Assembly: GCA_035576225.1 (NCBI GenBank)
Contig: DATLWQ010000304.1
Location: forward strand, 1 to 33,138
Reading direction: 5' to 3'
DNA: 33,138 nt
Source: Fimbriimonadaceae bacterium
Lineage (GTDB): Bacteria; Armatimonadota; Fimbriimonadia; Fimbriimonadales; Fimbriimonadaceae
A program made the translations under genes and the position numbers. A model generated the notes under the pieces. It was not told the origin of the DNA. It saw only the letters and a list, made by a program, of their open reading frames with translations, and did no database searches. Below, one piece after another: positions 7,421 to 28,782 of the stretch; within the stretch, counting starts at the first letter, position 1; each line of letters starts with the position of its first letter.

Positions 7421-7423
7421 GCC

Positions 7424-11951: not shown

Positions 11952-11975
11952 CGCCTGCCATACTCGCTGTGCGCG

Positions 11976-13595
11976 ATGGCATGGCTCCTCCTACTCTTGG
12001 CGACGACAGGACAGGTCCAACAGCGGCCGCAACTCGCGTCGCAGGGGCTGAGCGGCTACATCAGCATGTCTGTGCCCGCGCCGAATGAAGGCTACGGCTA
12101 CGGCGTGAGCCTCTACGCTACGGCCTGGCCGCTCGTCAGCCGCCCGATCCGCGATTTCCAGATCGGCCTCGCGTCCATCTGGATCATCCCCGACAACAGG
12201 GACGTCAATGAGCCGCTGTTGCCGCACGGCACCGTCGCGCGCGACAACTGGCCGGAGCGCGGCCCCAGTTACCGAACGGTCTTCGAGACCATCGAAGGCG
12301 GACTAGGATTTTGGGCGAGCACGCGCTTCGGTTCGACCACCGCCAAGTTCCGTATGAACGGGACGCCGAACGGCTACAACCACGAAATCTCCTCGCCAGG
12401 CTGGGGGTTTGGCAGGACGCAGGCGCTCAAGCCGGACCAGATGGGCATCGCGCAACTCAGCCCGTGGCTGCTCGTCCCGCCCGACGGCCTCACGTTCGAA
12501 AAGGACACGCTCGGCGAGTTGTTCGGCTATGCGTGGATGGCGCTCCCTCTCACCCTGCCCAAGCAGACGACGGCAGGACTGCCGGTTCCAACCGGCAACG
12601 AGTGCTGGACCATGTTCGTCAACGCGAAGAACTTCCGCGGCCCGGTCGCCTGCTACACTCCGGTCACGTGGTCGCGCATCTCGCGCATCCATCCACCGGC
12701 GGTCGGTCGCGGCCTCGACGCGCGACCCGGAGTGGTGGCCGGCGGCGCGATCGAGATCAACACCGTTCCGCGGTTCGTCGCAAAGGCCAAAGACGGGACC
12801 GTCTACACGCGCATCCCGCAGTTGCAGTTCCCGGTCGATGAAGACGGACAGACCGTGCTCATCCACAACTTGACTCACTACGGTAAAGGTGCACTGTGGA
12901 ACCAGGTCGAAGCGTGGATCGCTGGTGGCGCCGCGCCGTCCGGTCAGTTCGACATGAGCGCCGCACGGACGCCGCCTGTCAAGGCCCAACCGCTCACGGT
13001 GCACCAGGGACCCGACCAAGCATTGATCAAAGGGTGTGAGAACTGGCTCAGCACCTCGACGCTCGACGCGACGACCTTTGGCCTTTCGTGGAAGCCAGCA
13101 GCGATCCAGCCGTGGGAACACGGCCTGGGGCGCGGCACGTTCCCCGAGTTCTTCAAGCGAGTCAAGGACGAGTGGTTGGCTATCAAGCCAGAGGACGTCC
13201 CGAAGGAGACCGGCCTCGCGGACGAGAAGTTTCCGCCAGCCGCCACGGATCAGTCTTACGTCTCGCCAGATACAAAGGACGACGTCTGGCACAAACCGGG
13301 CCCGGCGGCGGGCCCCTTCACCGCGCATCTCTCCGACGGCAGCGTCGTCACCTACTACTGGTACCGCTTCATCGACCAGCCCTCGCTGCAAGACGCCGAC
13401 CTGAGCGACGCAGAAAAGGCGAGGCTGCAGTCGGTCGTGGAGAAGATCCACCGGCAATGGACGAAAGAGAGGCAGTACCTTCCATCGCCAGGGAAGGGCA
13501 CGCTCGCATCGCTCGATCCATCGTTACTGGTGATGCCGCCGAAGGGCATGGAGGTCGGTTACGTGCCCATCGTCACGCGCCAGTCTCCACAGTAG
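11976..13595 (+). CDS. hypothetical secreted protein, no recognisable domain
   Basis: 539-aa ORF starting 25 nt after the TolC-like stop on the same strand, with a short hydrophobic N-terminus (MAWLLLLLATTG). Trp/Pro/Gly-rich, with no motif I can name. It is followed by the only clear terminator hairpin of the operon. Confidence 0.7.
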   Translation: MAWLLLLLATTGQVQQRPQLASQGLSGYISMSVPAPNEGYGYGVSLYATAWPLVSRPIRDFQIGLASIWIIPDNRDVNEPLLPHGTVARDNWPERGPSYRTVFETIEGGLGFWASTRFGSTTAKFRMNGTPNGYNHEISSPGWGFGRTQALKPDQMGIAQLSPWLLVPPDGLTFEKDTLGELFGYAWMALPLTLPKQTTAGLPVPTGNECWTMFVNAKNFRGPVACYTPVTWSRISRIHPPAVGRGLDARPGVVAGGAIEINTVPRFVAKAKDGTVYTRIPQLQFPVDEDGQTVLIHNLTHYGKGALWNQVEAWIAGGAAPSGQFDMSAARTPPVKAQPLTVHQGPDQALIKGCENWLSTSTLDATTFGLSWKPAAIQPWEHGLGRGTFPEFFKRVKDEWLAIKPEDVPKETGLADEKFPPAATDQSYVSPDTKDDVWHKPGPAAGPFTAHLSDGSVVTYYWYRFIDQPSLQDADLSDAEKARLQSVVEKIHRQWTKERQYLPSPGKGTLASLDPSLLVMPPKGMEVGYVPIVTRQSPQ

Positions 13596-13599
13596 AGGC

Positions 13600-13640
13600 G
13601 GCCGCCGCCGTAGCCAGTGGAACTACGAGCGGCGGCCTTT
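13600..13640 (+). terminator. intrinsic-terminator-like hairpin between convergent operons
   Basis: GGCCGCCGCCGTAG (13600-13613) pairs with CTACG-A-GCGGCGGCC (13623-13637), giving a 14-bp GC-rich stem with one bulge and a 9-nt loop, followed by TTT. The U-tract is short, and the reverse direction has no T-run. Confidence 0.5.
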
Positions 13641-13687
13641 CACGGATCTATGGTTCCTCAGCCTCCGCGTGCCTTAGCCTCTCGGCG

Positions 13688-16600
13688 TCAAGGCGCGGGT
13701 TTCTTCGGAGACATGAGAAAGTCGACCAATGACTTGTAGACCTTGTCTGGTTGATGGAAGTCCGGCATCTGCGTCCCCGGGTCGATCGCCTGCGGGTTCT
13801 TCAGGAACCGGAACACCCAGTCCTCTTTCAAACGCGAGGTGACCTCCGCCAGGTCGGGGCCGATCTTCTCCGTGTCCTGACCGGCGATGGACTGCTTGCC
13901 GCCCACCGGGTGACAACTCTCGCACTGGAGTTTCTTAAAGTACGTCGCGCCCTGCATCGCCAGCGGATAGACCTGCTGGTCAGCAGGGACATAGTCGTAG
14001 GGCGCGGTCTGGTTCGACATCTGCATGATGAACTCGACCAGCGTCGTCGTCTCCTCCACAGTCAGATGGAAGTTGGGCATCCGGGCGGGCTCCCACCACC
14101 TGATGCGGTGCGGCTTCATCAGGAAACTGAACAGCCACTTCGGTTTGACCTTCTCGCCTTCGCGAGTGAGGTCGGGCCCGACAGTGTGACCCACGCCGTT
14201 GAGCATGTGGCACGCCTGGCAGTTCTTCCTCAGCACCAAGAGCCGTCCCTTCGTCAGCACGGACTGGCTCGCAAAGAGCCCCGGCGTGTACTCGTTCGGA
14301 AGATCCTCGGGCTTGAGCGAGATCAGATACACCGCGAGCGCGTGCGTCTCATCCTTCGTCAGTCCGAACTTCGGCATCGCCGCCTTGATCGTCGCGGTCT
14401 CGAACTGCTTCGGGTCGTCGATCTTCGCCTGGATCCAGTCGAACAGCGTGCGCCCGACGTTCTTCGCGTTGCCATATTCCAGTTCGTCGACCGTCTTGGC
14501 ACCGACCTCCGTCAAGTCGGGAGCGGCGATGCGCTGGATCTGGCCGATGTCGTGGCATCCGGCGCACCCGCGCTTCATGATCAGTTCCTTGCCCTTGTCG
14601 ACCAGCGCCTGGTCAAAGGTCGGGCTCTCGTCCAACTTCGCTCTCGGCCGCGTCTCGATCTGGATCAGATAGTTGGTGATCAGTGCGATCTGGTCGGCGT
14701 CGAGGCCGAAGACCGGCATTTTGCTGTTCGGCAGGTACGCCTTCGGGTTCTCGATCCACGAGTAGAGCCAACTCGGCGAAGCCTTCGACGCGACGTGCGT
14801 CAGTTCCGGCCCGAACGGCGAGCCTTCGCCCTGGATCACGTGGCACCCCGTACACCCGATGGAGACGACAAGTTTGTCCGCCTTGTCCATTTGCGCCGGG
14901 GTCAAAGGCGTGTAAGTGAACTGGTGTGCAGGCTTCCAGTCGTGCAGGGTGAGCAGGTACGCCGCGATCGCCTTCGCTTCGTCCTCTTTGAATCCGAAGT
15001 TCGGCATTCGCGCTTCGACAGAGTGCGACTGCGGGTTTTCCAGCCACTTGATCAGCCAGTCATGGTCGACCTTCGCTCCGACGTGGTCGAGCGCGGGTCC
15101 GCTCTTGAACACGATGTCGCGTCCCTCGACCTTGTGGCAGCCGAGGCACCCAGAGTTCTCGAAGAGCGTCTTTCCACGGTCGAACACGTTCGTGCCCGTC
15201 ATCTGCTCGACGTCGCCGTGGCACTTCACGCACGTCGACTGCACGAGGTCGCCCTTCATCAGCGGCGTGCCCTTGCCGACCTTGCCGCCGTGCGCCTCGT
15301 TGAGGTCCAGAGCCTGGCCCCATCCGCCGTGGCACGTCGTGCAAGCGAACCGGTCAGGCGAGTGCGTCCCGATGATCGTGCCCGGGTGCGTCCGGAACGG
15401 CTGCGGCGCGTCCTTGAACATCGGGTCTTCGATCCCCATGTGGCACGTGGTGCACCGCTCAACGGTCTTGAGCCGCGGAAGCACGATCTGCTCGATCTCG
15501 GGCCTTGCAGACTCGCTCTTCTTCATTCTCGCCTGGAGTTGCGTCAGTTTCTGCTCCTGGCTGTCGTGAAACTTGTCCAGGTCGTCCTTCGACTTCTTGA
15601 GCGCGTCGACGTCAGTGCCGTCTCCAATCCTTGCCTCGGCGAGTTTGTCCACGTCCTCGGCCCAAAGGAGGTGCTGTGCATGGTCCTTCAGGTCGCCCTT
15701 GGTCCCCTCCAGAGCGAGGTTCGCCTCCGCCAATGCGAGTTTCGCCTTGGCCGCGTCGAAACTTGTCTTCGCGATCTTGATCTTGAGCGTTTCATTGGCC
15801 GGCAGCCCGAGCGTCTGCCTCTCGTAGAGGTGCTGCGCCTCGGCGTAGTTGCGCTTCGCGTCGTCGAGGCTTCGTTGCGCCGCCGTCGTATCGACCTCCA
15901 GTTGACTCGATTCGACGAGTTCGTCCTGGTCGATCTTCGGCGCTTCTGCCTGCGGCTGGGACGACTGGTCGGCCTGCCCCTTCTGGGCCGCCTGGCCCTT
16001 CGAACTGTCCGGGAACGCCTTGTCCAGTTCTCCCTCGAGGCTTGAGTTGTCATCGCCGGAAGAAGCCTGGCCCTTGCCCTTGTCGGCCCGGCCCTTGTCG
16101 CTCTGGCCCGATCCGCCGGACTCGCCGCCGCCCATCCCTGCAAGTTCTTTCTCCAAGTCGGACATGTCGCCAGAACTGCCGTCCTTCGAGGAGTCCCCTT
16201 GCGTGGCTTTGCCCTTCCCACTGTCGGTCTGCGCGCCGCCCTGGTCGGAACCGCCCATGCCGGCGAGTTCCTTTTCCAGGTCCGACATTTCGCCGGCGCT
16301 CGGGGCCGCTCCCTGGTCCGAAGTCGTGGTCTCCTCGCCCTGCGCCGACTGGATGTCCAGTTCGTCCAGGTCCGCCTCCAGTTGCTCCAAAGAAGACGCG
16401 TCTTCGTCGCGCTTGGCCAGCGCCTTGTCATAGAGGTCGCGCGACTTCTTATAGTCCGCCTCGTACGAAGGCGACTTCAGCCACGCCGTCAACTGCTGGA
16501 TCTGCTGGCCCAGCAGTTTCTGCTCTTCCTTCCTGTATTTGCTCTGGTAGTCGATCCACGAAGGGTGCGTGTCCTTCCAGATCGACAGGCCCATGACGAC

Positions 16601-16702
16601 GAGCATAACGACGCTCAGCACGAGGAATGAAGCGCTCATTTTGAACGCGCTCTTGTCCGGTTTCTTTGCTTTCTTCAGGCCCATGGCCACACCCAACTCC
16701 AC
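13688..16702 (-). CDS. membrane-anchored octahaem c-type cytochrome (3 clustered haems plus 5 tandem class-I cytochrome c domains) with a long coiled-coil/acidic N-terminal region
   Basis: Eight CXXCH motifs: CTTCH, CTTCH, CVKCH, CLGCH, CTGCH, CAGCH, CQACH, CESCH. All lie in residues 417-1004 (nt 13688-15454). The last five sit in a repeated pattern GC-x-GCH...GP-L...W...P...MP-F. An N-terminal TM helix (FLVLSVVMLVVMGLSIW) is followed by about 370 aa rich in E/D/K/Q/G/S. GTG 16702 follows GAGGA by 6 nt. An alternative ATG lies at 16684. Confidence 0.9.
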   Translation of the reverse strand: MELGVAMGLKKAKKPDKSAFKMSASFLVLSVVMLVVMGLSIWKDTHPSWIDYQSKYRKEEQKLLGQQIQQLTAWLKSPSYEADYKKSRDLYDKALAKRDEDASSLEQLEADLDELDIQSAQGEETTTSDQGAAPSAGEMSDLEKELAGMGGSDQGGAQTDSGKGKATQGDSSKDGSSGDMSDLEKELAGMGGGESGGSGQSDKGRADKGKGQASSGDDNSSLEGELDKAFPDSSKGQAAQKGQADQSSQPQAEAPKIDQDELVESSQLEVDTTAAQRSLDDAKRNYAEAQHLYERQTLGLPANETLKIKIAKTSFDAAKAKLALAEANLALEGTKGDLKDHAQHLLWAEDVDKLAEARIGDGTDVDALKKSKDDLDKFHDSQEQKLTQLQARMKKSESARPEIEQIVLPRLKTVERCTTCHMGIEDPMFKDAPQPFRTHPGTIIGTHSPDRFACTTCHGGWGQALDLNEAHGGKVGKGTPLMKGDLVQSTCVKCHGDVEQMTGTNVFDRGKTLFENSGCLGCHKVEGRDIVFKSGPALDHVGAKVDHDWLIKWLENPQSHSVEARMPNFGFKEDEAKAIAAYLLTLHDWKPAHQFTYTPLTPAQMDKADKLVVSIGCTGCHVIQGEGSPFGPELTHVASKASPSWLYSWIENPKAYLPNSKMPVFGLDADQIALITNYLIQIETRPRAKLDESPTFDQALVDKGKELIMKRGCAGCHDIGQIQRIAAPDLTEVGAKTVDELEYGNAKNVGRTLFDWIQAKIDDPKQFETATIKAAMPKFGLTKDETHALAVYLISLKPEDLPNEYTPGLFASQSVLTKGRLLVLRKNCQACHMLNGVGHTVGPDLTREGEKVKPKWLFSFLMKPHRIRWWEPARMPNFHLTVEETTTLVEFIMQMSNQTAPYDYVPADQQVYPLAMQGATYFKKLQCESCHPVGGKQSIAGQDTEKIGPDLAEVTSRLKEDWVFRFLKNPQAIDPGTQMPDFHQPDKVYKSLVDFLMSPKKPAP
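16046..16291 (-). repeat. intragenic tandem duplication, 2 x 123 nt (41-aa unit beginning [ED]MSDLEKELAGMGG)
   Basis: Residues 138-178 and 179-219 of the octahaem protein both start with MSDLEKELAGMGG followed by Gly/Ser/Asp/Lys-rich low complexity. At the DNA level the conserved cores lie at about 16250-16291 and 16127-16168. Confidence 0.8.
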
Positions 16703-17316
16703 CCTGGTCCTCGGAAGAACTGTCCGATCACGATGAGAACGAGCCCTATGTATACAAACATCCAGTAGAACCTCCGTCGAGCGAGTTCGGCCCTCTTTTC
16801 ATCGTCAAAACGAGGCGAGCCCGCGTACTTCCTCAGGAGAACGAAACTGACGATCCATAGAATGAACGTCGGGAACCCGTAAACGCGGATGGTGTCCGCG
16901 AAACCTGGCGCCATCGAGTGCACGAGTTCCCATATGATGTCGTCGAATACGGGCATCACGATGATTGCGACCAGGAAGCCGGAAGGAATGATCGCCTTCC
17001 TGCCTTTGCAGTAGGGGATGGTGCACAAGGTCGCGACGATCGCGCCCGGCACCATCACTCCGGCGATGAACGGCGGCGCGTAGTGCAGCAGTTCCTGCAG
17101 CCCCAGGAAGTACCACGGAGCCTTCGCCGGGTTCGGAGTCTTGCCGGGGTTGGCGATCTGCTCCAGCGGCGCGTTGAAGAAGTACGCGATCAGGAACAGC
17201 GCCATGCACAGCAGCCCGAACGCGATGAACTCGCGAGCGATCAGGTTCGGATACGTCGAGACGGTCTCTTCTTCCTCGGTGTCCTTGACCGTCGACCTGC
17301 CGGGGATGAAGGCCAT
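16675..17316 (-). CDS. cytochrome b C-terminal half (b6f subunit-IV-like) with extra C-terminal helices
   Basis: 213 aa. The Qo-site block reads NPAKAPWYFLGLQELL, aligning to the PEWYF block of cytochrome b/subunit IV. AAGGAG lies 9 nt upstream of ATG 17316. Confidence 0.85.
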   Translation of the reverse strand: MAFIPGRSTVKDTEEEETVSTYPNLIAREFIAFGLLCMALFLIAYFFNAPLEQIANPGKTPNPAKAPWYFLGLQELLHYAPPFIAGVMVPGAIVATLCTIPYCKGRKAIIPSGFLVAIIVMPVFDDIIWELVHSMAPGFADTIRVYGFPTFILWIVSFVLLRKYAGSPRFDDEKRAELARRRFYWMFVYIGLVLIVIGQFFRGPGWSWVWPWA

Positions 17317-17371
17317 CAGGCCGTACTCCTTGTCGTCGTGCCGATCTTCGTTGGTGTTGTCGGTGTTCAGT

Positions 17372-18124
17372 TTATAGACCTCCCGAAAAACCGTCTTTGC
17401 GCACCCTCCACAAGTGGTACACGATGAGCGCGACCATCACGAGCGGCACCGCGACGCAGTGCAGAACGTAGAACCGCAGCAGCGCGGGCTGGTCGACCGT
17501 CGCACCGCCGAGCAGCACGAACCGAATGTCCGCGCCGGCGAACGGCACCGCGCCCGCCATGTTCGTGCCGACCGTCACCGCCCAGAACGCAAGTTGGTCC
17601 CAAGGCAGCAGATAGCCGGTGAAACTCAGGAAGAACGTAAGTACCAGCAGGATGACGCCCACCACCCAGTTGAACTCCCGCGGGTGCTTGTACGCCTTGG
17701 AGACGAACACGCGGATCATGTGCAGGAACACGACGACAACCATCGCGTGGGCCCCCCACCGGTGGACGTTGCGCACGATCTTTCCGAGAGAGATCGCCGT
17801 CTGCAGGTCCACCATGTCCGCGTGGGCGCGCTCGACCGATGGCACGTAGTAGAACATCAGCAGCACGCCGGTCACCGTCAGGATCAGGAACAGCGCCGCA
17901 GAAAGCCCGCCAAGGCAGTACGTGCAGTTGAACTTGATCGCCTGAGCCTTGATCTTCGACGGGTGCAGGTGGAACCAGAAACTCGTGATCGCGATCTCCG
18001 ATCGTTCGCGGTCTGTCCGGGGGTACGGCTTGGTAAAGATCGACCGCCAGACCAGCGACTGCTTCACGGTCTCGACGAACGTCTTCTTTGTGCCTGTCTT
18101 TTCTTCGTTTGGGATCTGACTCAT
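17372..18124 (-). CDS. cytochrome b6-like N-terminal half of a split cytochrome b
   Basis: 250 aa. Paired His haem-b ligand blocks are present ([19 protein letters not shown] and [23 protein letters not shown]). There is a b6-type TYCLGG block. The ATG overlaps the Rieske stop as ATGA (18121-18124). Confidence 0.92.
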
Positions 18125-18600
18125 GCCTTGAATCCTTTCTTGCGGTCGAGTTCTCCCGATTTGTCCACGATCAGCACGCCAAGCGCGTTCTCAGTGATCT
18201 CGAAGGAGTCGAGCGGGCGCGGCGCCGGGCCTGCGTAGTTCGTGCCGTCGTGGTGGTACTTGCTGCCGTGGCACGGGCAGAAAAAGCCGTTCGTCGCCGG
18301 GTCGGAGCGGACAGTACAGCCCAGGTGGGTGCAGACCGCCGAGATCGCGAGCAGTTTGTCGCCGTCGCGGACGATGAAGACCTTCTGGTCCTTCAGGAAC
18401 GTCGCCGTCCCATCCGGGAAGTCGTCGAGTTTGCCGACGCGGAACTTGTTTGGCTTGCCGTATTCGACGTTCGGCACGAGGAACCGCAGGGAGCCGATCA
18501 TGATCAGGAAAAGCGTGGTGCAGAAGGTCCACAGACCGGCCAGGAACAGCCTCCTGGTCGTCTTTTCGGACTTCGTCTCGGGCCCGCGCTTCACAGTCAC
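18121..18600 (-). CDS. Rieske [2Fe-2S] subunit with Tat-type signal anchor
   Basis: ORF 18121..18912 trimmed to GTG 18600 ([22 protein letters not shown]...), with an alternative GTG at 18594. GGAGGG lies just upstream, and the GTG overlaps the preceding stop as GTGA. Cluster motifs CTHLGC and CPCHGS are present, with a twin-Arg TRRLFL. Confidence 0.88.
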
Positions 18601-20450
18601 ATGCCCTCCTGATAGCGGCCCATCCACATCGCGTCGACGGGGCATCGTTCGACGCAGAGGCCACACCTCGTGCACAGTTCTTCGTCTTTCAGCATTGCAT
18701 ACCATCCGGGGCCGTCGTATGAGCGGTCGGACGCCATGTCTTCGAGCGTCATTGAGTGCCGCTTTTGTGCGAGGTCCTTCAACTTGTCGTCCACGTCGAC
18801 GTTGTCGACCGGCACGATCCGCAGACAACCGTACGGGCAGACGTCGACGCATCCGCCGCACAGGACGCACTTGTCCCAGTCGACCATCGGGCTCAGGTTG
18901 CACTTGAGGCAACGCTGTGCCTCACGTACCGCCTCCATCCGCGAGAAGCCGACCTCGACCTCCGTGATGCCGACCCGCCGATCCATCGGGAGCGTCTTGA
19001 TCTCCTGCCTTGGTATGTAATCGTAGTCCTTGGCCATGTGGTGCGTCTGCAGGCGAATGACCTGCGGCTCCCTGTGCCTCGGGTCTGGCGCTTCGGCGCC
19101 CGTCAAGTACCGATGGATCTCGAAGGCCGCCTTGCGTCCGTCTGCGACCGCCTCGATCGCGGTCCTTGCTCCAAACGCCGCATCGCCGCCCGCGAACACG
19201 CCGGGGATCGAGGTCGCCATCGTGTCGGGATCGGTCTTGAGCAGCCCGCGCGAGGTGAGCGTGGCCCGGCTTTCGTCGCTCAGGAAGGAGAGGTCCGTCT
19301 CCTGGCCGATCGCCAGCAGGATCGTGTCGCAGTCGAACGTCGACTCCGACCCTTCTTCGAACTTCGGGGAGAACCGGCCCCTATCGTCGAACACCGAAAG
19401 GCAGCGCCTCGTCACGAGCCCCGCGCACTTGCCGTCCCTTGCCTCGACCTCGACCGGCCCGACGGAGTTGTGGAGCACGATGCCCTCGTTCAGCGCTTCG
19501 ACGATCTCCTCTTCATAGGCCGGCATCTCCTCCGGTGACTCCAGGCACATCAAGTGGACCTCCGTCGCGCCAGACCGCTTCGCGATCCTCGCGACGTCGA
19601 CCGCCGGACCGAGCGCGACGCCCGTCGTCGCCTTAGCCGTGTCCTCGGCCGTCAGTTCGAGCGGCCCGCGGATCGCCGTCCTAGCGACGTCCATCGCGAC
19701 GTTTCCGCCGCCGATGACGACGACCCGCTGCCCAATCTCCACCTTATAACCTAGGTTTTGGTTGAGGAGAAAATCGATTCCGTTGATGACGCCGTCGCTC
19801 TCGATGCCTGCGATCGGCAGTCCGCGCCCCTTCTGCGCACCGACCCCCAGGAAAACCGCGTCATAACCGCCGCTGAGCAGATCTTCGAGCGAGATATCGT
19901 CGCCGATGCGACAGTTCGTGCGGAGATCCACGCCGACCGAGAGCAGCGACTCGATCTCCTTGTTCATGATGTCCCGCGGGAGCCTGTACTCGGGGATTCC
20001 GTGCACCAGCATCCCGCCCGGACGGTCGCTCGCTTCGAAGAGCGTCGCCTGAAAGCCGAGCAGCGTCAGGTCGTGAGCGGCAGTCAGGCCCGCCGGGCCC
20101 GCGCCGATGACGGCGACCTTCTTCTTCGTCTTGTTGAGCCCGTCAAAGTCGCCGCCGGACTTGAATCCTGCGCTCGAATGGTCTGCCGCCGCCCGCTTCA
20201 GCCCGCGGATCGAGATCGGGTCGTCGTGCTTGCCGCGCCGACACGCGAACTCGCACGGGTGGCCGCAGATCCTCGCGCAAATGTTGACGAACGGGTTGGG
20301 GAAGCGGGCTATCTCGTACGCTGCATCGAAGTCGTTCCTGGCGATCGCCTCGATGTACCCTTGTGCGTTTGTTTCTACTGGGCACGCGCCACGGCAACTG
20401 ACGAGTGACCTGAGCCACTTCGAGTCCATGGCACGTGCCCTGTATTTCAT
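18597..20450 (-). CDS. GltD-like (glutamate synthase small-subunit family) FAD/NAD(P)-dependent oxidoreductase with a C-terminal 2x[4Fe-4S] ferredoxin domain
   Basis: 617 aa. The N-terminal Cys cluster is CRGACPVETN...CARICGHPCEFACRRG. Two Rossmann GxGxxG motifs are present (VAVIGAGPAGLTAA, VVVIGGGNVAMDVA), plus a GMLVHGIPEYRLP block. Two C-terminal CxxCxxCxxxCP motifs are present (CVLCGGCVDVCP, CTRCGLCVERCP). No signal peptide, so it is predicted cytoplasmic. Confidence 0.88.
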   Translation of the reverse strand: MKYRARAMDSKWLRSLVSCRGACPVETNAQGYIEAIARNDFDAAYEIARFPNPFVNICARICGHPCEFACRRGKHDDPISIRGLKRAAADHSSAGFKSGGDFDGLNKTKKKVAVIGAGPAGLTAAHDLTLLGFQATLFEASDRPGGMLVHGIPEYRLPRDIMNKEIESLLSVGVDLRTNCRIGDDISLEDLLSGGYDAVFLGVGAQKGRGLPIAGIESDGVINGIDFLLNQNLGYKVEIGQRVVVIGGGNVAMDVARTAIRGPLELTAEDTAKATTGVALGPAVDVARIAKRSGATEVHLMCLESPEEMPAYEEEIVEALNEGIVLHNSVGPVEVEARDGKCAGLVTRRCLSVFDDRGRFSPKFEEGSESTFDCDTILLAIGQETDLSFLSDESRATLTSRGLLKTDPDTMATSIPGVFAGGDAAFGARTAIEAVADGRKAAFEIHRYLTGAEAPDPRHREPQVIRLQTHHMAKDYDYIPRQEIKTLPMDRRVGITEVEVGFSRMEAVREAQRCLKCNLSPMVDWDKCVLCGGCVDVCPYGCLRIVPVDNVDVDDKLKDLAQKRHSMTLEDMASDRSYDGPGWYAMLKDEELCTRCGLCVERCPVDAMWMGRYQEGM

Positions 20451-20481: not shown

Positions 20482-21849
20482 TTAGAACGCGAATCTGAAG
20501 AAAACCCCCAGACTGTCGTCGCCGTTGACGTCTCTAGTGTATTCGCCTGCGATCGCAAAGTTGGTTCGCAGGAAGTGCGTGTAGTTGAACGTGTACGACT
20601 CGTGCTGCCAGTCGGGGTTGTCGCCCGAGTTGACGCGGTCGTAGCGCGCGGTGACGATGTCGTTGGGTCCAGTAATGAACCCGAGTTGTGCGAAGTAGCC
20701 GCTGACGTCCATCGGAGTCGAGTTGACCACCGCGGTCGGGTTGTCCGCCCTACCAGTGACGGCAGCCGCCTCAAAGATATACGGTTTCTGATTATTGCCC
20801 GCTTTCTTGATCGGCTTGCCGAACTGCCAGGTCAGGTCCGCACCGTAGAAGTGGAACTTGTTCTCGAACTCCGCCAGGGTGTTCGGATCCTGGACGATCG
20901 TCCGACCTGAGTAGCCAAAGAGTCCGAGTTGCGAGTCGTTGTCGAAGTTGAACCCGACGCGGGCCCAGTAGTCGGTGACCCCCGGCGAGGACGTGATTGG
21001 GGCGTTCGGATCGTCTGACTGGCCTTCTGTGCTCCCGTCGGAGATCGCGACCTCCCAGATCATTCCTTTCATGGAGTCGTAGGGGTCGCCCTGGTCTCCA
21101 AGTTGGAGGTCTTGTCCGCCCGCGAAGCCGTTCACCGGCACCAGTTTGTTCTGGGAGTCGCCGGAGGCTCCGTCGTCGCCGCTGGACGGGTTGCCCTTGA
21201 CGAGATCGGAGGTGATGGTCGAGCCGACGGTGCCGAACAGCCGTATGCCGCCGACGATGTGGTCGAGCGCGAACCCGCCCACGTTGACGTCATAGATGCT
21301 GTACGGTGCGTCCGTCAGGCTGAACTCGTTGCTGAGGCCGTTCTCCATCAGGTCGAGCAGACCGACCTGCAGAAAGACGTTCTGGCCGCCGAGGAAACTG
21401 AAGACGGCGTTGGCCTTCTTGACCGCAGCCTCTCCGTCCTCGACCGAGATCTCGCTGAAGAACCCCATGTTCGGGGCCAGCGTCCCTCCGGCCAGCAGTT
21501 CTGCCTCGTTGAAGAAGTCAAACGAGTTGCGGTCGCTTGCGTTCACCCATTCGGGGAACGACATCGAACTCTTCAGTTGGATCGCGAACGGGATGCTCGA
21601 GGGCAGGCTGAAGTTGGGGTCCTCGTCGGCGTAGATCTTCTTCGTCTTCGAGTCGCCCGGCTGTTGATAGCCGCTCATCCTAAAGTTCTTCCCGAACGTC
21701 GTCAACTTCGGAAACCCGATGTGACAGCGCGCGCATGTCGTGTGATACTTTCTTGCGAATTCTGGTATTGCCTGCGCCGTCTCCGCCACTCCGAAGAGAG
21801 CGACTGCGCAGAGTGTGACCAGGTAACCCATTCTATGTGTTGCTTTCAT
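20482..21849 (-). CDS. monohaem cytochrome c fused to a predicted outer-membrane beta-barrel (Cyc2/Cyt572-like cytochrome-porin)
   Basis: 455 aa with a signal peptide (...GVAETAQA/IPEF). A single CARCH sits at residues 39-43 (nt 21721-21735) within FARKYHTTCARCHIGFPKLTTFGKNFRMSGY. The rest is Gly/Asp/Asn/aromatic-rich with alternating pattern, ending in an OMP-type C-terminus GVFFRFAF. Confidence 0.65.
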   Translation of the reverse strand: MKATHRMGYLVTLCAVALFGVAETAQAIPEFARKYHTTCARCHIGFPKLTTFGKNFRMSGYQQPGDSKTKKIYADEDPNFSLPSSIPFAIQLKSSMSFPEWVNASDRNSFDFFNEAELLAGGTLAPNMGFFSEISVEDGEAAVKKANAVFSFLGGQNVFLQVGLLDLMENGLSNEFSLTDAPYSIYDVNVGGFALDHIVGGIRLFGTVGSTITSDLVKGNPSSGDDGASGDSQNKLVPVNGFAGGQDLQLGDQGDPYDSMKGMIWEVAISDGSTEGQSDDPNAPITSSPGVTDYWARVGFNFDNDSQLGLFGYSGRTIVQDPNTLAEFENKFHFYGADLTWQFGKPIKKAGNNQKPYIFEAAAVTGRADNPTAVVNSTPMDVSGYFAQLGFITGPNDIVTARYDRVNSGDNPDWQHESYTFNYTHFLRTNFAIAGEYTRDVNGDDSLGVFFRFAF

Positions 21850-21917: not shown

Positions 21918-22529
21918 CTACGTCTTCACCTTCAGCAGGATCGTCGTGTTGCCCGTCGCTCCGACGGTGATGCTCTCATCGGTCGAACCCGTAGGAGTCC
22001 ACACCTTCAGAGTGTACGAGCCGGCCGGCACGTCCGGGATCTTGAAAAGACCGGACTTGTCGGTCACGGCGAAGAACGGGTTGTCCAGGACTGCGATGTA
22101 TCCTTTCATCGCCGCATGGATGTGGCACCTGACTGCAACGACTCCGAACTTGTCAAACGTGACGTCGGAGTACTTGCCTTTGTCAGGCTGGCTGATGTTG
22201 AACTTGAAGAGGCGAGAATTCGCGTAGACGTTGTGGAGAAACGGGTCGGAGTTCAGGAACCGCACTGTCGTGCCTACCATGATCGCGAGCGTGTCAGGGA
22301 CGAACGTCTTGTCCTTCTGGTCCATGAGCACTGGCTTTTCCGGCGCTTTGAACTTGCCGGGCACCGACGCGATGTAGACGACCGCGCCCGTAACTCTCTT
22401 GCCATCGACGGTCGATTGGACTGCACCCTGGACGTTGCCTGCCATGGCAAATGGGGCCAACGTCGCGACCACCGCGAGGGCGGTCAGAGCCCGCTGGGAG
22501 AGTCCTCGGTTGCGTAACATTTCTTTCAT
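21918..22529 (-). CDS. periplasmic cupredoxin-like (type-1 copper) protein flanked by carboxypeptidase-regulatory-like beta-sandwich segments
   Basis: 203 aa with a signal peptide (ALTALAVVATLAPFAMA). The candidate Cu ligand set is His99 (SDPFLHNV) plus Cys135-x2-His138-x2-Met141 (VRCHIHAAMKG, nt 22107-22127). The C-terminal GLFKIPDVPAGSYTLKVW resembles a CarboxypepD_reg-like segment. AAGGAG abuts ATG 22529, so the second ATG (22520) may be the true start. Confidence 0.65.
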   Translation of the reverse strand: MKEMLRNRGLSQRALTALAVVATLAPFAMAGNVQGAVQSTVDGKRVTGAVVYIASVPGKFKAPEKPVLMDQKDKTFVPDTLAIMVGTTVRFLNSDPFLHNVYANSRLFKFNISQPDKGKYSDVTFDKFGVVAVRCHIHAAMKGYIAVLDNPFFAVTDKSGLFKIPDVPAGSYTLKVWTPTGSTDESITVGATGNTTILLKVKT

Positions 22530-22558: not shown

Positions 22559-22574
22559 GTTGAACTTTGTCACA
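22559..22574. promoter_or_regulatory. Crp/Fnr-family-like site GTTGA-ACTTTG-TCACA (TGA-N6-TCA core)
   Basis: The minus strand reads TGTGA-CAAAGT-TCAAC, matching 8 of 10 positions of the CRP half-sites. The site is centred 37 nt upstream of the cupredoxin ATG. It overlaps the tandem 10-bp repeat CGTTCTAGTT/CGCTCTAGTT at 22542-22561. Confidence 0.35.
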
Positions 22575-22590
22575 CGGGCCATCTGACCCG

Positions 22591-22606
22591 TATGACCGTG
22601 GTCATA
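22591..22606. promoter_or_regulatory. perfect 16-bp palindrome TATGACCGTGGTCATA (TGA-N6-TCA core), candidate Crp/Fnr-family operator
   Basis: Perfect dyad in the divergent intergenic region between the respiratory operon and the ccmF-like gene, 32 bp centre-to-centre from the 22559-22574 site. A second dyad overlaps it: ACCGTGG (22595-22601) with CCACGGT (22613-22619). Confidence 0.45.
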
Positions 22607-22752
22607 CCTATGCCACGGTGCCATTTCTAGACTCAAATGCCTGTTCCAACGATACTCCAACGGTCCTAGGATGCACAATGGGTGCAGGCGTCCCGCCGAG
22701 CAGCGCGCACACCGGGTGCGAGCAGGTCGAGCGCAGAGGCGCCAGCCTTGTG

Positions 22753-25248
22753 ATGAGCCAGTTTTCTCAGCCTCTTCCGTTTTGGATATCGTTCGGCTCC
22801 CTCGCCGCAGCCTTGGTGGTCGTCGGAGTCGTTGCCTTCGCGGGCTGTGCGCTCTTGTATGCTTTTGGAAAAGAGACGGCGCTCGCCAAGAAGATCGGCA
22901 ACGTCTGCTTTGCGACCGGCATCGGCACCCTCGTCTTCGCGATGGTCGCGCACCTCTCACTGATCCTGACCAAGCAGTACTCCTTCCAGTACGTGTGGAC
23001 GCACACCAGCAACGAACTGCCGTTCATCTATAGGCTTTCGGCCGCGTGGGCGGGCCAGGAGGGGAGTTTCCTGCTGTGGGCGGCCATGACCGGAATCATA
23101 GGAGCGATCGTCGTACGTTGGACGGGGAAGTACCGCCGCTGGTATCTCGTCAGCCTCGCCGGCGTCCTCGCCTGCCTCATGGGCATCCTCGCCTACGAAT
23201 CGCCTTTCAGACTGATCACGATCACCCCAGAACTGATGGCCGCGCTCCCCGCAGGAGTCACGATGGTCCTCCCTCCTGACGGCCAGGGCCTCAACCCCTC
23301 GCTCGTCAGCCCATGGATGGTCATCCATCCCTGGATCATCTTTGCGGGCTTCGGTTCGCTCGGCGCTCTCTTCGCCTGGTCGGTCTCGGCAGCCGTCTCC
23401 GCAGACTGGGACGGCTGGGCCAAGGCGGTCCGGCCAGTCGTGATCCTTTCGATGAGCCTGATCGGCCTCGGCCTGGTCTTCGGCGGCGTTTGGGCGTACG
23501 AGACCCTCGGGTGGGGAGGGTTCTGGGCGTGGGACCCGGTCGAGAACGTCGCGCTCGTCCCCTGGCTGCTTTCGATCGTCTTCGCGCACGGGCTCTACAT
23601 CCAGAACCACCGCCACAAGTGGACCCGGTTCAACCTCGTCATGGGCGCGCTGCCGTTCCTCTCGTTCGCCTGGGGCACGCTATTAACAAGGAGTGGAGCC
23701 CTCACAGCCGTCAGCGTCCACAGTTTCGCCCGTATGGAGGAGGGCGCGCACGGAATCATGTTCTGGCTCGTGCGGTCAATCGTCCTCATCGTCCTCTTCG
23801 GAGGTGGCTTTGTGGCGGCCCGCAAGATTCGTGCAGCCGAAGAAGGTTCGGATGCACGGGCGGCATCCCCGCTGAGCATCGTCTTGGTCGCCGTCGCGTT
23901 CTTCATAGTGGCCGCAATCGTGTTCGCTGTCCTCACGTCCGCCGGAGAGGGGCGCTCGTTCCAGTGGTCGGTCTATAGCGGCTTTCTGATCTCTCTGGTC
24001 GTCGGTCTCGCGGCGTTCCTCGCAGGCGTCCTAGTCGGCAAAGCCGCCGCACCGGCCGTCGCTTCCGGACGCGAGGAGGTCGCCGAACACCGCACCAAGG
24101 CGATCGCGATCGGGATGGCTCTTGTTGCAGTCCCCGGCGTGCTCGCGGCGATTGGTTCAGCCGTCCCGCTGTTTGCGACCATCGTCTCCAAAAAACCCAG
24201 TGTCGTCGAGGAGGGAACCTACAACCGCTCGCTCGGCGCGTTCCTCGTCCTTATATTAATCGTCGTCGGCATCGCGCCCTTCATGGGCTGGACCGCCACC
24301 AAGCGAGAGCGCATCGCCAGGGTCCTTCTCTCGTCCGGCATCGGCCTGGTGCTCGCCGTCGCCTCCGTCTTCGTACTCAGGAAGTTCGACCTCACGCGTC
24401 CTGACGGCGTGCCGATGAAGGCACAAGAACTTGTCCTCTATGAGGCCATCATCGCAGCCTGGCTCTTCGCCGTCGTCGCCAACGCAGTCCGCCTGTTCGA
24501 GCGGATGAAGGCCAAGACCGGCAACCCCGGCCCCTTTCTCGCGCACGCTGGTGTCGCTCTCGTCCTGTTAGGAATCGTAGTGTCGAGGGCCTTCGGCAGG
24601 CAACAGACCGGCATCGTCGCGGTCGGCGAGCCGGCGACAGTCATTGGCGCACAGTTGAGCGTCCCCTCCGAACCCTCGCAGACCGCAATGCTCAAGCCCG
24701 GAAACAAGGTGCCGTTCAAACTGGAGTGGGCCAAGCGAGACTACACTCTGTCGCCCGTAGTCTACGAACAGCCTACGGCGATGGGAAGCCTCCAGCCCGT
24801 CACGAGGCCCGACATCCGTTCGACTCCGTTCTACGACCTCTACCTCTCGGTCGCGGACATGGTCAAGGACTACGTGGACCCAGTCCGTTTCGGGCTCGGC
24901 GACACCAAGGCCGTCGGCGACTTCATGTTCACGCTCGCATCGCTCCAGCAGCAGACGCCGTCGACCGCCGTCGCGACCTTCAACGTCCGCAACTCCGACG
25001 GCGAGACGCGCACGTTCAGAGTGCAGCGCGGCACCGCGGACGGCACCTCGGACCCTGTCCCGTTCGCGGACTTTGTGGGCATGCGGCTCGACTCGGCTGA
25101 CGTCGCGAGCGGCTCAGTCGTCCTCTCGACCCCCTATGAGCGACCGGTGTTTCCCGTCGAACTCATGTTCCGTCCCATGACGGTATTGGTCTGGATCGGG
25201 GCTTTGGCGACCATGATGGGCATGGTCTTCGTCTATCGGCGCAAATGA
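22753..25248 (+). CDS. ccmF: CcmF/NrfE-family cytochrome c haem lyase, extended (831 aa)
   Basis: ORF 22567..25248 trimmed to ATG 22753 (MSQFSQPLPFWISFG...). The Trp-rich haem-handling motif is WAYETLGWGGFWAWDPVENVALVPWL. CcmF-like blocks are seen throughout (AAWAGQEGSFLLW, LNPSLVSPWMVIHPW, LLTRSGALTAVSVHSFA), with a C-terminal TM matching the CcmF end. Confidence 0.88.
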   Translation: MSQFSQPLPFWISFGSLAAALVVVGVVAFAGCALLYAFGKETALAKKIGNVCFATGIGTLVFAMVAHLSLILTKQYSFQYVWTHTSNELPFIYRLSAAWAGQEGSFLLWAAMTGIIGAIVVRWTGKYRRWYLVSLAGVLACLMGILAYESPFRLITITPELMAALPAGVTMVLPPDGQGLNPSLVSPWMVIHPWIIFAGFGSLGALFAWSVSAAVSADWDGWAKAVRPVVILSMSLIGLGLVFGGVWAYETLGWGGFWAWDPVENVALVPWLLSIVFAHGLYIQNHRHKWTRFNLVMGALPFLSFAWGTLLTRSGALTAVSVHSFARMEEGAHGIMFWLVRSIVLIVLFGGGFVAARKIRAAEEGSDARAASPLSIVLVAVAFFIVAAIVFAVLTSAGEGRSFQWSVYSGFLISLVVGLAAFLAGVLVGKAAAPAVASGREEVAEHRTKAIAIGMALVAVPGVLAAIGSAVPLFATIVSKKPSVVEEGTYNRSLGAFLVLILIVVGIAPFMGWTATKRERIARVLLSSGIGLVLAVASVFVLRKFDLTRPDGVPMKAQELVLYEAIIAAWLFAVVANAVRLFERMKAKTGNPGPFLAHAGVALVLLGIVVSRAFGRQQTGIVAVGEPATVIGAQLSVPSEPSQTAMLKPGNKVPFKLEWAKRDYTLSPVVYEQPTAMGSLQPVTRPDIRSTPFYDLYLSVADMVKDYVDPVRFGLGDTKAVGDFMFTLASLQQQTPSTAVATFNVRNSDGETRTFRVQRGTADGTSDPVPFADFVGMRLDSADVASGSVVLSTPYERPVFPVELMFRPMTVLVWIGALATMMGMVFVYRRK

Positions 25249-25254
25249 CGCGCA

Positions 25255-25959
25255 CTACTCGAAACTGCTCCTCTTGAGTTCGTCCGTGTCGATGATCGTC
25301 ACGTAGTGGTCGTCTGTCCTGACCAGCCCGCTCCTCTGCCAGCGGCTGAACACGCGGATCGCCGACTCGACGGTCGTCCCGGCCATTTCCGCCAGGTCGC
25401 GCCGCATCAGCGGCATCTGCAGCCTGACGCCTGCGGACGTCTCTTCTCCATACGACTGCGCAAGCAGCAGCAGGATCACAGCGATTTTGGCCTCGACGCT
25501 CCCGGTCGAGAGGTGCGCCATGATCTCCATCCTCTCCCTGAACCGGTGGGTCGTCCGCTTGAGCAGGCTCGCCCGGAGCAGTCTGTTGTTGTCGTAGATC
25601 GGCAGGAAGGCGGCCTTTGGAATCTTGAGGTACCAGGTGAAGCAGACCGCGCGCGCCATCAGGGGGCAGCCTGTCCCCTCGATCATTCCGAGCAGCCCGA
25701 AGATCTGCCCGGGGCCGAACACTTCAAAGGTCGTCTGGTGGCCGGGGCCCATGCTCCGGACCATCTTGACGAACCCGGCGCCGACGAGACCGTAGAATTC
25801 GACCTGGCTCCCATTGATCCAAATTGTCTCGCCCCTTTCGGCGGATGCCATGTGAGACACCTTCGCCAGTTCGTCGAGATCCTCGGCCGGGAGGGTGTTG
25901 AAGAGTGTGCTAGATCTTAGGGCTCCAATATTCGTAGGTCGCTCTGGGACCGAAGACAC
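25255..25959 (-). CDS. Crp/Fnr-family transcriptional regulator (no N-terminal FNR Cys cluster)
   Basis: 234 aa with a cNMP-binding-type beta-roll (LFNTLPAEDLDELAK...GETIWINGSQVEFYGLVGAGFVKM) and a C-terminal HTH (RRDLAEMAGTTVESAIRVFSRWQRSGLV). The start is GTG 25959. The first in-frame ATG would truncate the domain. Confidence 0.85.
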   Translation of the reverse strand: MSSVPERPTNIGALRSSTLFNTLPAEDLDELAKVSHMASAERGETIWINGSQVEFYGLVGAGFVKMVRSMGPGHQTTFEVFGPGQIFGLLGMIEGTGCPLMARAVCFTWYLKIPKAAFLPIYDNNRLLRASLLKRTTHRFRERMEIMAHLSTGSVEAKIAVILLLLAQSYGEETSAGVRLQMPLMRRDLAEMAGTTVESAIRVFSRWQRSGLVRTDDHYVTIIDTDELKRSSFE

Positions 25960-27831: not shown

Positions 27832-28782
27832 ATGGACGGCTACAAGCATCTAGATTTCTTACAGGTCACCGAGGAGGCGGCGCTCGCGTCGTCGCGATGG
27901 GTCGGAAAAGGCAAGCGCGACGAGGCCGACCAGGCCGCGTGCGAGGCCATGCGGTCGCGCCTGAACTCGATGGAGATGTGCGCGACCATCGTCATCGGCG
28001 AGGGTGAGCGCGACGAAGCGCCGATGCTCTACATCGGCGAGAAACTGGGCAGGGGCGAGGGCCCGAACATCCAGATCGCGGTCGACCCGCTCGAGGGGAC
28101 CAACCTGTGCGCCAACGGCACGCCCAACGCGATCTCCGTGCTCGCTGCCGCTGTCGAGGGTGAAGGCTTCCTCATGCACGCGCCTGACTGCTACATGGAG
28201 AAACTCGTCGTCGGTGCGGAGTGCGTCGGTGTCGTGGACATCACGCTTCCGCCGCGCGTCAACGTGCGACTCATCGCCAAGGCGCTGGGTAAGGACGTCG
28301 ATGAGTGCATCATCGGCATCCTCGACAGGCCGCGCCACGAGGCGCTCATCTCCGAACTCCGCGAGGCCGGTTGCCGCGTGCACCTCGTGCCGGACGGCGA
28401 CCTTTCCGTCGCCATCGCCGCGCTCGACCCCGAATCGGGCATCGACGGGCTGATGGGCATCGGCGGTGCGCCGGAAGGCGTCATCACCGCCGCGGCGGTG
28501 CTGTGCACGGGCGGCGAGATGCAGGCGCGACTCAAGTTGCGCGACGACAAGGAGCGCTCCCGCGCCGAGAGCATGATCGAAGGAGACGTCGACCGTGTGT
28601 TCCGCACCAAGGACATGGCGTCGGGCGGCGTCGTCTTCGCGGCGACCGGGATCACGTCGGGCGACCTTCTCAAAGGCGTGCGCTACAAGCGCAACTACGC
28701 GCAGACCGAGAGCATCGTGATGCGCTCGAACGGAATCATCCGTCGCATCGAGACGGTGCACATGGAAGAGCCGGCGCACTAG
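27832..28782 (+). CDS. glpX: class II fructose-1,6-bisphosphatase
   Basis: 316 aa with GlpX blocks (TEEAALASSRWVGKG, VIGEGERDEAPMLYIGEKLG, AVDPLEGTN, GIGGAPEGVITAAA). A strong SD GGAGGAG lies 4 nt upstream of the ATG. Confidence 0.92.
   Translation: MDGYKHLDFLQVTEEAALASSRWVGKGKRDEADQAACEAMRSRLNSMEMCATIVIGEGERDEAPMLYIGEKLGRGEGPNIQIAVDPLEGTNLCANGTPNAISVLAAAVEGEGFLMHAPDCYMEKLVVGAECVGVVDITLPPRVNVRLIAKALGKDVDECIIGILDRPRHEALISELREAGCRVHLVPDGDLSVAIAALDPESGIDGLMGIGGAPEGVITAAAVLCTGGEMQARLKLRDDKERSRAESMIEGDVDRVFRTKDMASGGVVFAATGITSGDLLKGVRYKRNYAQTESIVMRSNGIIRRIETVHMEEPAH

Follow-up and report, generated by a model that had tools for sequence, protein, structure and literature searches.

A predicted Cyc2-family cytochrome-porin encoded in a conserved operon with a cupredoxin and an NAD(P)-linked Rieske/cytochrome b complex

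Introduction

What is a gene for a Cyc2-like protein, a monohaem cytochrome fused to a porin, doing in one operon with a Rieske/cytochrome b complex that has its own NAD(P) oxidoreductase, and which way would electrons run between them? The question is posed by positions 1 to 33,138 of contig DATLWQ010000304.1 (GenBank assembly GCA_035576225.1), referred to below as the window. The Cyc2-like gene lies at 20482..21849 on the minus strand; an earlier note on this DNA, made from the sequence alone, had proposed a fused monohaem cytochrome-porin for the same interval and named no strand. Judged from its sequence, the product is very probably a Cyc2-family cytochrome-porin, a divergent new member of a large and already recognized family, and the new element is the operon context rather than the Cyc2-like protein alone. 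That context is conserved, and it matters: a Cyc2-type conduit and a cupredoxin share one transcription unit with an NAD(P)-linked Rieske/cytochrome b complex, a type of complex that until now has been a topic of anammox research, in which both its role and its energetics are unclear (PMC12954380).

Sequence of the Cyc2-like protein

The definition of Cyc2 given by Keffer et al. 2021 (PMC8406198) combines a signal peptide, one CXXCH, the motif AXPXFAR[Q/K][T/Y] upstream and PXL downstream of it, a length of at least 365 amino acids (aa), and a 16-stranded porin. The window gene is an open reading frame (ORF) that opens with ATG and encodes 455 aa before its stop codon, well above that length, and an independent gene call on a metagenome contig of identical DNA in the European Nucleotide Archive (ENA) also yields a 455-aa product. 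Its N-terminus, MKATHRMGYLVTLCAVALFGVAETAQA|IP (continuing IPEF...), combines a basic n-region and a hydrophobic core with AQA as the cleavage motif; the signal peptide was recognized by inspection, with residues 1-27 (21769..21849, minus strand) as its predicted extent and cleavage predicted after AQA, and the hydrophobic N-terminus and an A-x-A|IP junction are present in 21 aligned homologues. The putative haem-binding segment, AIPEFARKYHTTCARCHIGFPKL (residues 27-49; 21703..21771, minus strand), fits the published motif: the upstream part takes the form AIPEFARKY (A27-I-P-E-F-A-R-K-Y35), and HTT-CARCH-IGF-PKL follows, with PKL as the downstream PXL. CARCH (residues 39-43, 21721-21735) is the sole CXXCH of the protein, so that the single N-terminal CXXCH of the definition is there, and its first Cys is mature residue 12. 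By the window's own amino-acid composition, 0.0018 CXXCH would be expected by chance in a protein of 455 aa, and all 21 close homologues keep it.

The mature protein contains no Cys outside the CXXCH. The claim of the earlier note that there is no other Cys therefore stands for the mature protein and fails for the precursor, which has one more, C14, within the signal peptide. Cys14 was considered as a lipoprotein Cys and ruled out, because the preceding VTL is not lipobox-like and the residue is unconserved in the homologues. Beyond the haem segment, the composition departs from that of the other window proteins in Gly (10.8 % versus 8.8 %), Asn (7.2 % versus 2.7 %), Asp (9.0 % versus 6.6 %), and aromatic residues (12.8 % versus 7.0 %), and several of the predicted strands show alternating hydrophobicity. 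The protein terminates in ...GVFFRFAF; F or Y is the last residue in 20 of 21 homologues, and the remaining one is without a C-terminal segment in the alignment. The earlier note had described the protein in much these terms, listing a cleavable signal peptide, one CXXCH about 12 residues past the cleavage site, a stretch rich in Gly, Asn, Asp, and aromatics with alternating hydrophobicity, and the terminal aromatic signature, and its description of these features was accurate.

Conservation follows the haem site. In an alignment of 45 diverse relatives, P29, R33, K34, Y35, C39, C42, H43, and P47 are invariant and L49 is almost invariant, and 248 of the 286 relatives collected have one CXXCH together with an F[AS]R[QK]x motif that ends exactly 3 residues before the first Cys. 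The window's own subfamily, with 26 collected members, is set apart by an invariant GYQQPGD after the haem segment. A single-sequence search retrieved 56 homologues, 20 of which (P0002-P0021) are full-length matches at 33-56 % identity, and a profile of the 45 diverse members, searched against 1.84 billion proteins, retrieved 6,238 cluster representatives at E <= 1e-3, of which 3,520 reach E <= 1e-10 and 827 reach E <= 1e-30. The labelled family matches come from metagenome-assembled genomes (MAGs) of Armatimonadota, Ignavibacteria, Chlorobi, Acidobacteria, and Myxococcota type, and the probable placement of the host in Armatimonadota follows from the labels of relatives at 36 % identity or less, Fimbriimonadaceae (36 %) and Chthonomonadaceae. 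The large homologue searches returned only unnamed or MAG-labelled "hypothetical proteins," none of them labelled as coming from a model iron oxidizer. No Pfam or NCBIfam model matches the protein, and PDB sequence searches with either the protein or the broad profile gave no match, so no solved Cyc2-like structure is detectable by sequence. Cyc2 homologues are already known in thousands, the literature includes a Cyc2 from an Armatimonadota MAG that FeGenie assigned to Cluster 3, and annotation tools such as FeGenie would probably flag the window protein.

How close is the protein to a biochemically validated Cyc2? As a reference we used the tandem mass spectrometry peptides of Mariprofundus ferrooxydans Cyc2 PV-1 in Table S1 of Keffer et al. 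2021 (PMC8406198), among which the haem peptide reads (FAR)QTGAACLSCHFQTFPALNAFGR. Back-translation of this haem peptide led to 13 metagenome loci; ten of the genes there are complete, and their products, 412-479 aa long, are 46-65 % identical to PV-1 over 263 peptide residues. A hidden Markov model of the window subfamily scores these ten PV-1-type sequences at 48-63 bits, and hhalign pairs the subfamily with them at a probability of 98.6 % (E 9.6e-16, columns 1-136). An artefact of aligned signal peptides was considered as the source of this match and rejected, as the match persists without the signal peptides (E 8.9e-12) and is still present, though weaker, once the haem motif is cut away too (from residue 50; E 3.8e-5). 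When the alignment begins at residue 66 the probability is 27 %, and the barrel alone (from residue 86) gives no signal.

BLASTP against the same ten sequences tells a similar story, with 50-62 bits and 24-35 % identity over only the N-terminal ~85-130 residues. Scaled to an nr-like database of 1e11 residues, the E values range from 2.7e-6 to 0.015, one of the ten falling below 1e-5 and a second lying at 2.0e-5; a match at E <= 1e-5 to a recognized, PV-1-type Cyc2 is thus on record for the N-terminal part. The earlier note had held that its proposal should be given up if significant Cyc2 or Cyt572 homology were absent, a situation that does not apply given the hhalign result, again for the N-terminal part only. 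A match restricted in this way is the pattern that the Cyc2 literature describes, in which a conserved cytochrome segment is joined to a fast-diverging porin (Keffer et al. 2021, PMC8406198). With members of the Chlorobi type, which Keffer et al. 2021 (PMC8406198) placed in Cluster 1, hhalign aligns the subfamily over its full length (99.8 %, E 3.5e-30, 381 columns). No close PV-1 orthologue occurs among the family members collected.

Structure prediction

AlphaFold2, run with the 21-sequence alignment, predicts a 16-stranded beta-barrel that takes up residues 88-455 (20485..21588, minus strand) and closes with the beta-signal-like ...GVFFRFAF. The model has a mean predicted local distance difference test score (pLDDT) of 72.8 and a predicted template modeling score (pTM) of 0.73; its 16 beta-strands are 9-17 residues long and lie between residues 88 and 454, and low confidence is limited to the haem segment (residues 20-49, pLDDT < 50) and two long loops. 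Foldseek searches of the PDB with this model gave 199 matches at E <= 1e-3. All 50 of the matches listed are outer-membrane porins or porin-derived constructs, nearly all of them 16-stranded general porins (OmpU, OmpT, OmpF, OmpC, Omp32, and the OprO structure 4rjw), with E values of 3e-11 to 1e-8 and target-normalized template modeling (TM) scores of 0.5-0.67. OprO and OprP are the templates reported for Cyc2 itself (Keffer et al. 2021, PMC8406198). For Leptospirillum Cyt572, which the earlier note had named beside Cyc2, the literature likewise gives a predicted 16-strand topology.

The model thus supplies, as a prediction, the porin domain that belongs to the definition of Cyc2. The earlier note had taken a structure prediction without a barrel as reason to abandon its proposal, and a barrel was predicted. 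Its broader claim, that the protein has the architecture of a Cyc2-type cytochrome-porin, has also held up, given the haem-site motif, the PXL, the length, the predicted 16-stranded porin, and the profile match to PV-1-type Cyc2.

Genomic context

The operon is what distinguishes this Cyc2-like gene. Between 22529 and 13688, seven minus-strand genes follow one another head to tail, separated by gaps of -28 to 68 bp, in the order cupredoxin, Cyc2-like protein, NAD(P) flavoprotein, Rieske protein, cytochrome b, a protein like subunit IV (SUIV) or PetD, and octahaem cytochrome c. The same order is found in all seven subfamily loci that could be read (L001, L002/L003, L017, L018, L036, L037, and the window), and a cupredoxin gene lies directly upstream of the Cyc2-like gene in 8/8 loci of Armatimonadota type. 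A scan of the operon for promoters and terminators performed at chance level and was uninformative. In open-access text we found no published description of a Cyc2 gene in an NAD(P)-linked Rieske/cytochrome b operon, an absence that is weak evidence.

The first gene of the operon (21918..22529, minus strand) encodes a cupredoxin-like secreted protein of 203 aa with a C-terminal Ig-like (CarboxypepD_reg) domain. Pfam recognizes both parts, Copper-bind at 22.5 bits (cut-off 21.2) and CarboxypepD_reg. The ligand set of a type-1 copper site, His in SDPFxHN followed by Cys-x2-His-x3-Met in RCHIHxxM, is kept in 6/6 cupredoxin orthologues, and by these ligands the partner qualifies as a putative type-1 (blue) copper protein. 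Upstream of the Cyc2-like gene, L036 has two tandem cupredoxin-like genes (7465-8907 of that locus) instead of one.

The remaining five genes encode a candidate complex. The gene that follows the Cyc2-like gene (18597..20450, minus strand) specifies a cytoplasmic NAD(P)-binding FAD and iron-sulfur (FeS) flavoprotein of the GltD/NfnB type (617 aa), which carries a 2x[4Fe-4S] ferredoxin domain at its C-terminus. Its domains are Fer4_20, Pyr_redox_2, and Fer4 in Pfam and PRK12771 in NCBIfam, and its best solved matches are 9bov/9bp5 (NfnABC), followed by NfnA, NfnI, and GltD; 9bp5 is the template reported for Kuste4570, a protein of Kuenenia stuttgartiensis. The Rieske iron-sulfur subunit (157 aa, GTG start; 18121..18594, minus strand, with the ENA call starting at 18600) carries the motifs CTHLGC ... 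CPCHGS. Its best PDB match is 9rk4, the Kuenenia Rieske protein Kuste4569 (E 1.1e-30, 110 bits), and Rieske proteins of plant and cyanobacterial b6f complexes reach at most 57 bits.

The cytochrome b (17372..18124, minus strand; Pfam Cytochrome_B) is a four-helix protein of 250 aa like cytochrome b6, and cytochrome b6 proteins are its best PDB matches (E 3e-47). Its Cys70 aligns with Cys35 of b6 (NCTYCLGG versus NIFYCLGG), the cysteine that binds haem cN in b6f complexes. The protein also has an N-terminal extension of ~60 residues that cytochrome b6 is without. The models of the Kuenenia complexes show an additional b haem at the dimer interface, with a His near the N-terminus of the b subunit as its ligand (PMC12954380). 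The SUIV-like membrane protein (213 aa, like the C-terminal part of cytochrome b or PetD; 16675..17316, minus strand) matches Pfam Cytochrom_B_C at 22.6 bits, and its gene holds a conserved position in all loci.

Last in the operon is the gene for a membrane-anchored octahaem c-type cytochrome of 1004 aa (13688..16702, minus strand). Eight CXXCH occur in the window protein and in the 4/4 orthologues counted, and Pfam finds Cytochrom_C in 5 stretches, Cytochrome_CBB3 in 4, and FixO in 3, as well as the MtrC/MtrF domain II/IV. Between its N-terminal membrane helix and the haem domains lies an acidic, low-complexity linker of ~300 aa (residues ~100-400), with a near-exact internal repeat, MSDLEKELAGMGG, in two copies; this linker may be a long periplasmic tether.

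According to a published proposal, the Kuste4569-4573 and Kustd1480-1485 complexes of Kuenenia bifurcate electrons from quinol, sending them to NAD(P)+ and to c-type haems (PMC12954380). All five subunit types of a complex of the Kuste4569-4573 type are encoded at 13688-20450 on the minus strand, the Rieske protein having been compared directly with the Kuenenia sequence and the other subunits by type. Because the Rieske protein, the flavoprotein with its shared template, the b6-like and SUIV-like proteins, and the octahaem cytochrome are all present, the subunit set of the window corresponds to that of the two Kuenenia complexes. An octahaem protein like HAO (the Kuste4574 type) is missing from the operon, both in the window and at the six other loci. 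Such a partner is also absent from Kustd1480-1485 (PMC12954380) and is therefore not defining for the Kuste4569-4573 type.

More distant relatives of the Cyc2-like gene have other partners than the subfamily loci do. In a relative of Chthonomonadaceae type (L019), a cupredoxin-like gene and a GltD-like flavoprotein gene are kept and other genes take the place of the Rieske/cytochrome b part: between the Cyc2-like gene and the gene for a 665-aa GltD-like flavoprotein (11590-16977 of that locus) come genes for a rubrerythrin-like protein, a membrane FeS protein of the Fer4_5 type, and a second cupredoxin-like protein. This arrangement suggests modular swapping of the inner-membrane partner. In a relative of Ignavibacteria type, the Cyc2-like gene is paired with a multihaem cytochrome only.

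The genes around the operon give some picture of the host. Divergent from it lies a gene for a haem lyase of the CcmF/NrfE family (22567..25248, plus strand; Pfam Cytochrom_C_asm and CcmF_C, NCBIfam NrfE/CcmF). The lyase is unusually long at 856-893 aa (856 aa in the ENA call), and a CcmF gene is likewise adjacent in L001, L018, and L037, with CcmE in L001 and L036. After the haem lyase comes a regulator of the Crp/FNR family (25255-25959, minus strand), which could be a redox or oxygen regulator of the operon. On the plus strand, 5483-11951 holds a three-gene operon for heavy-metal efflux, comprising a CusB-like membrane-fusion protein with two HMBD domains, a CusA/AcrB pump of the resistance-nodulation-division type (1090 aa), and a TolC-like outer-membrane factor, and the presence of the last of these supports a diderm envelope for the host. 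The adjacent CcmF-type lyase and the TolC-like efflux protein only make c-haem maturation and an outer membrane plausible.

Between the efflux operon and the octahaem gene stands a 539-aa ORF (11976-13595, plus strand) that has no Pfam match and is a called gene on the ENA contig too. A lone molybdopterin oxidoreductase of 745 aa is encoded at 28779-31016 (minus strand) with no adjoining genes for FeS or membrane subunits. Genes of the kynurenine pathway, for a tryptophan 2,3-dioxygenase and a kynureninase-like aminotransferase, occupy 58-2084 (minus strand), and together with the glycosidase, electron-transfer flavoprotein (ETF), and beta-oxidation genes of the longer ENA contig they indicate an organoheterotrophic host.

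Discussion

How might the parts work? On the basis of the conserved operon, the Cyc2-like protein probably works with the operon's cupredoxin and Rieske/cytochrome b complex. Once its Sec signal peptide has been removed, a short N-terminal segment would bind one covalent c-type haem at CARCH, and the ~370 remaining residues would form the 16-stranded porin barrel, inserted by the beta-barrel assembly machinery (BAM). If Cyc2 of Mariprofundus PV-1 and of Acidithiobacillus is a guide, the haem would be held in or under the pore and would relay electrons one at a time through the outer membrane, linking a redox partner outside the cell with the periplasm. The Cyc2-like gene would be co-transcribed with those for the cupredoxin, likely a periplasmic shuttle like rusticyanin, and for a b6f-like Rieske/cytochrome b complex that would present the octahaem cytochrome c on its periplasmic side and the NfnB/GltD-like NAD(P) oxidoreductase on its cytoplasmic side. 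The most likely route would then lead from extracellular Fe(II) or another reduced donor to the Cyc2-like haem, the cupredoxin, the octahaem cytochrome, and the Rieske/cytochrome b complex, and from there to the quinone pool and/or NAD(P)+. The operon thus suggests an outer-membrane-to-NAD(P) electron route, and a Cyc2-type outer-membrane haem conduit that works with its operon partners in the inward direction is, in our assessment, the best overall explanation and one toward which we lean. For the more specific case of electrons flowing inward from Fe(II), our support is tentative, although it is favored by the fact that all Cyc2 proteins assayed biochemically are Fe(II) oxidases (Keffer et al. 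2021, PMC8406198); Fe(II) as the substrate is something that we infer, as the earlier note already did.

Several points weigh against this explanation as a whole. Haem attachment, outer-membrane location, copper binding, complex formation, and each step of electron flow are likewise inferred. AlphaFold2 did not place the haem relative to the pore (residues 20-49, pLDDT < 50), and homology to the validated Cluster 1 protein is confined to roughly 110 mature residues at the N-terminus. Homologues in Clusters 2 and 3 may, as Keffer et al. 2021 (PMC8406198) caution, have other functions. The flanking genes look like those of a heterotroph (glycosidases, ETF, beta-oxidation, tryptophan catabolism), and the 52-kb contig stretches seen hold no gene for carbon fixation or a terminal oxidase. 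Finally, in the model for the anammox-type complex, electrons pass from quinol to NAD(P)+ with the c-type haems as a high-potential electron sink (PMC12954380), and with the c-haems as the sink the Cyc2-like protein would therefore be an exit rather than an entry. Electrons would in that case flow outward: the complex would oxidize quinol (or NAD(P)H), and the Rieske protein would hand electrons by way of the octahaem cytochrome and the cupredoxin to the Cyc2-like haem and on to an extracellular oxidant such as Fe(III), Mn(IV), or humics, with the exit either pulling a bifurcating, NAD(P)H-producing reaction or serving anaerobic respiration in a heterotroph. It is because of the published model, in which the c-type haems of Kuste4569-4573 are the high-potential acceptor side of quinol-driven bifurcation (PMC12954380), and because of the heterotrophic neighborhood, with no autotrophy genes seen, that we grant this direction an appreciable minority share of the probability while judging it unlikely. 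A monohaem conduit is also chemically reversible, and a Crp/FNR-type regulator adjoins the cluster. The record of tested Cyc2 proteins as Fe(II) oxidases argues the other way, and the outward conduits that are known are multihaem porin-cytochrome complexes of the MtrABC type, not monohaem Cyc2. Moreover, to judge by the potential of Kuste4569 (PMC12954380), a type-1 copper protein and a Rieske center at ~+300 mV would be high-potential carriers and poor reductants of Fe(III) oxides at neutral pH.

The extracellular partner might also be something other than iron. The protein could oxidize a different reductant that is extracellular or kept out of the periplasm (reduced humics, Mn(II), sulfur species, or a cathodic mineral surface), or it could be a redox-sensing or detoxifying pore and no energy-conserving oxidase. 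Such roles would suit a family whose 6,238 representatives (E <= 1e-3) are spread broadly over taxa, far beyond the known iron oxidizers, and for which Keffer et al. 2021 (PMC8406198) call additional functions possible; the subfamily has its own GYQQPGD signature (26 members), and relatives differ in their partners. We nevertheless consider them improbable, given that for no member of the family is another substrate documented and that a pairing with respiratory-type electron carriers, conserved across the loci, speaks for bulk electron flow more than for sensing. It is hardly credible, by comparison, that the protein is no cytochrome-porin at all and is instead a monohaem cytochrome of the periplasm whose long tail is disordered, or an ordinary diffusion porin with a chance CXXCH. 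The lack of a Pfam, NCBIfam, or PDB sequence match and the low pLDDT of the haem segment and two long loops are what could be said for this. They are set against a CXXCH and flanking motif that are invariant in 45 diverse relatives (with 0.0018 CXXCH expected by chance), sixteen confident strands at a pTM of 0.73, 199 porin matches, and conserved C-terminal aromatics.

What would follow if the parts do work together? Two questions would become testable in a single system: how iron- or electrode-oxidizing bacteria lift electrons from a high-potential donor to NAD(P)H, and what role and direction of operation NAD(P)-linked Rieske/cytochrome b complexes have. Extracellular electron exchange would extend to Armatimonadota-like heterotrophs of soils and sediments, and the reading of Cyc2 matches in metagenomes as markers of "iron oxidation" would be affected. 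A bolder version, which we regard as doubtful, is that the operon is a self-contained module in which a Cyc2-type haem, a blue-copper shuttle, an octahaem cytochrome, and a b6f-like complex with its own NAD(P) reductase would carry electrons from Fe(II) or minerals directly to NAD(P)H, or would run the reverse, quinol bifurcation with an extracellular oxidant as the pull. If this bolder version were true, no complex of the type would have been given an identifiable physiological partner outside anammox bacteria before, and it would represent a new solution to the "uphill" electron-transport problem of iron oxidizers in a lineage (probably Armatimonadota) that is regarded as heterotrophic.

Comparison with known systems

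Taken on its own, the window protein resembles Cyc2 PV-1 in its signal peptide, in its single N-terminal CXXCH after A-x-P-x-F-A-R-[Q/K]-[T/Y], which ends 3 residues before the first Cys ((FAR)QTGAACLSCH in PV-1), in F-P-x-L and x-F-G-[RK] past the haem site, and in a predicted 16-strand porin of ~400 aa. It differs in having KY where PV-1 has QT, in a spacing between CXXCH and PxL that is one residue shorter (CLSCH-FQTF-PAL in PV-1), in a barrel that cannot be aligned, and in its C-terminus, which ends in FAF where the PV-1 type ends in ...E(G/A)L(L/M); the type of organism and the operon differ as well. In its predicted barrel fold, the protein is like the general porins OmpU, OmpT, OmpF, OmpC, Omp32, OprO, and OprP. 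It shares only 8-14 % identity with general porins, with no sequence-level match, and those porins are without a haem-binding N-terminal extension.

The nearest counterpart of the inner-membrane part is found in Kuenenia stuttgartiensis (Kuste4569-4574 and Kustd1480-1485). Both there and in the window, a Rieske protein, a b6-like four-helix cytochrome b, a SUIV-like protein, and a cytoplasmic FeS NAD(P) oxidoreductase are combined, and a multihaem cytochrome c replaces cytochrome f. The window differs in its gene order, with the flavoprotein before the Rieske protein, and in a host that probably belongs to Armatimonadota and is without an anammoxosome. It also differs in tying the complex to a Cyc2-like outer-membrane protein and a cupredoxin, whereas no such coupling has been described for anammox.

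For the operon as a whole, the precedent is Acidithiobacillus ferrooxidans, in which electrons pass from Cyc2 to rusticyanin, CycA1, and a bc1 complex that runs uphill toward NAD(P)H. The likeness to its rus/pet system is one of roles: a Cyc2-type protein in the outer membrane is combined with a cupredoxin in the periplasm, c-type cytochromes, and a Rieske/cytochrome b complex coupled to the reduction of pyridine nucleotides. The window cupredoxin joins a plastocyanin-like domain to an Ig-like one and is not a rusticyanin, and in place of bc1 plus NDH-1 there is a b6f-like complex with an octahaem cytochrome and its own NAD(P) flavoprotein. The window cluster also differs in being without cytochrome oxidase genes. 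For each of the roles filled in A. ferrooxidans by Cyc2, rusticyanin, Cyc1/CycA1, bc1 (PetABC), and the NADH branch, the window has one representative, and here all the parts are gathered in a single operon.

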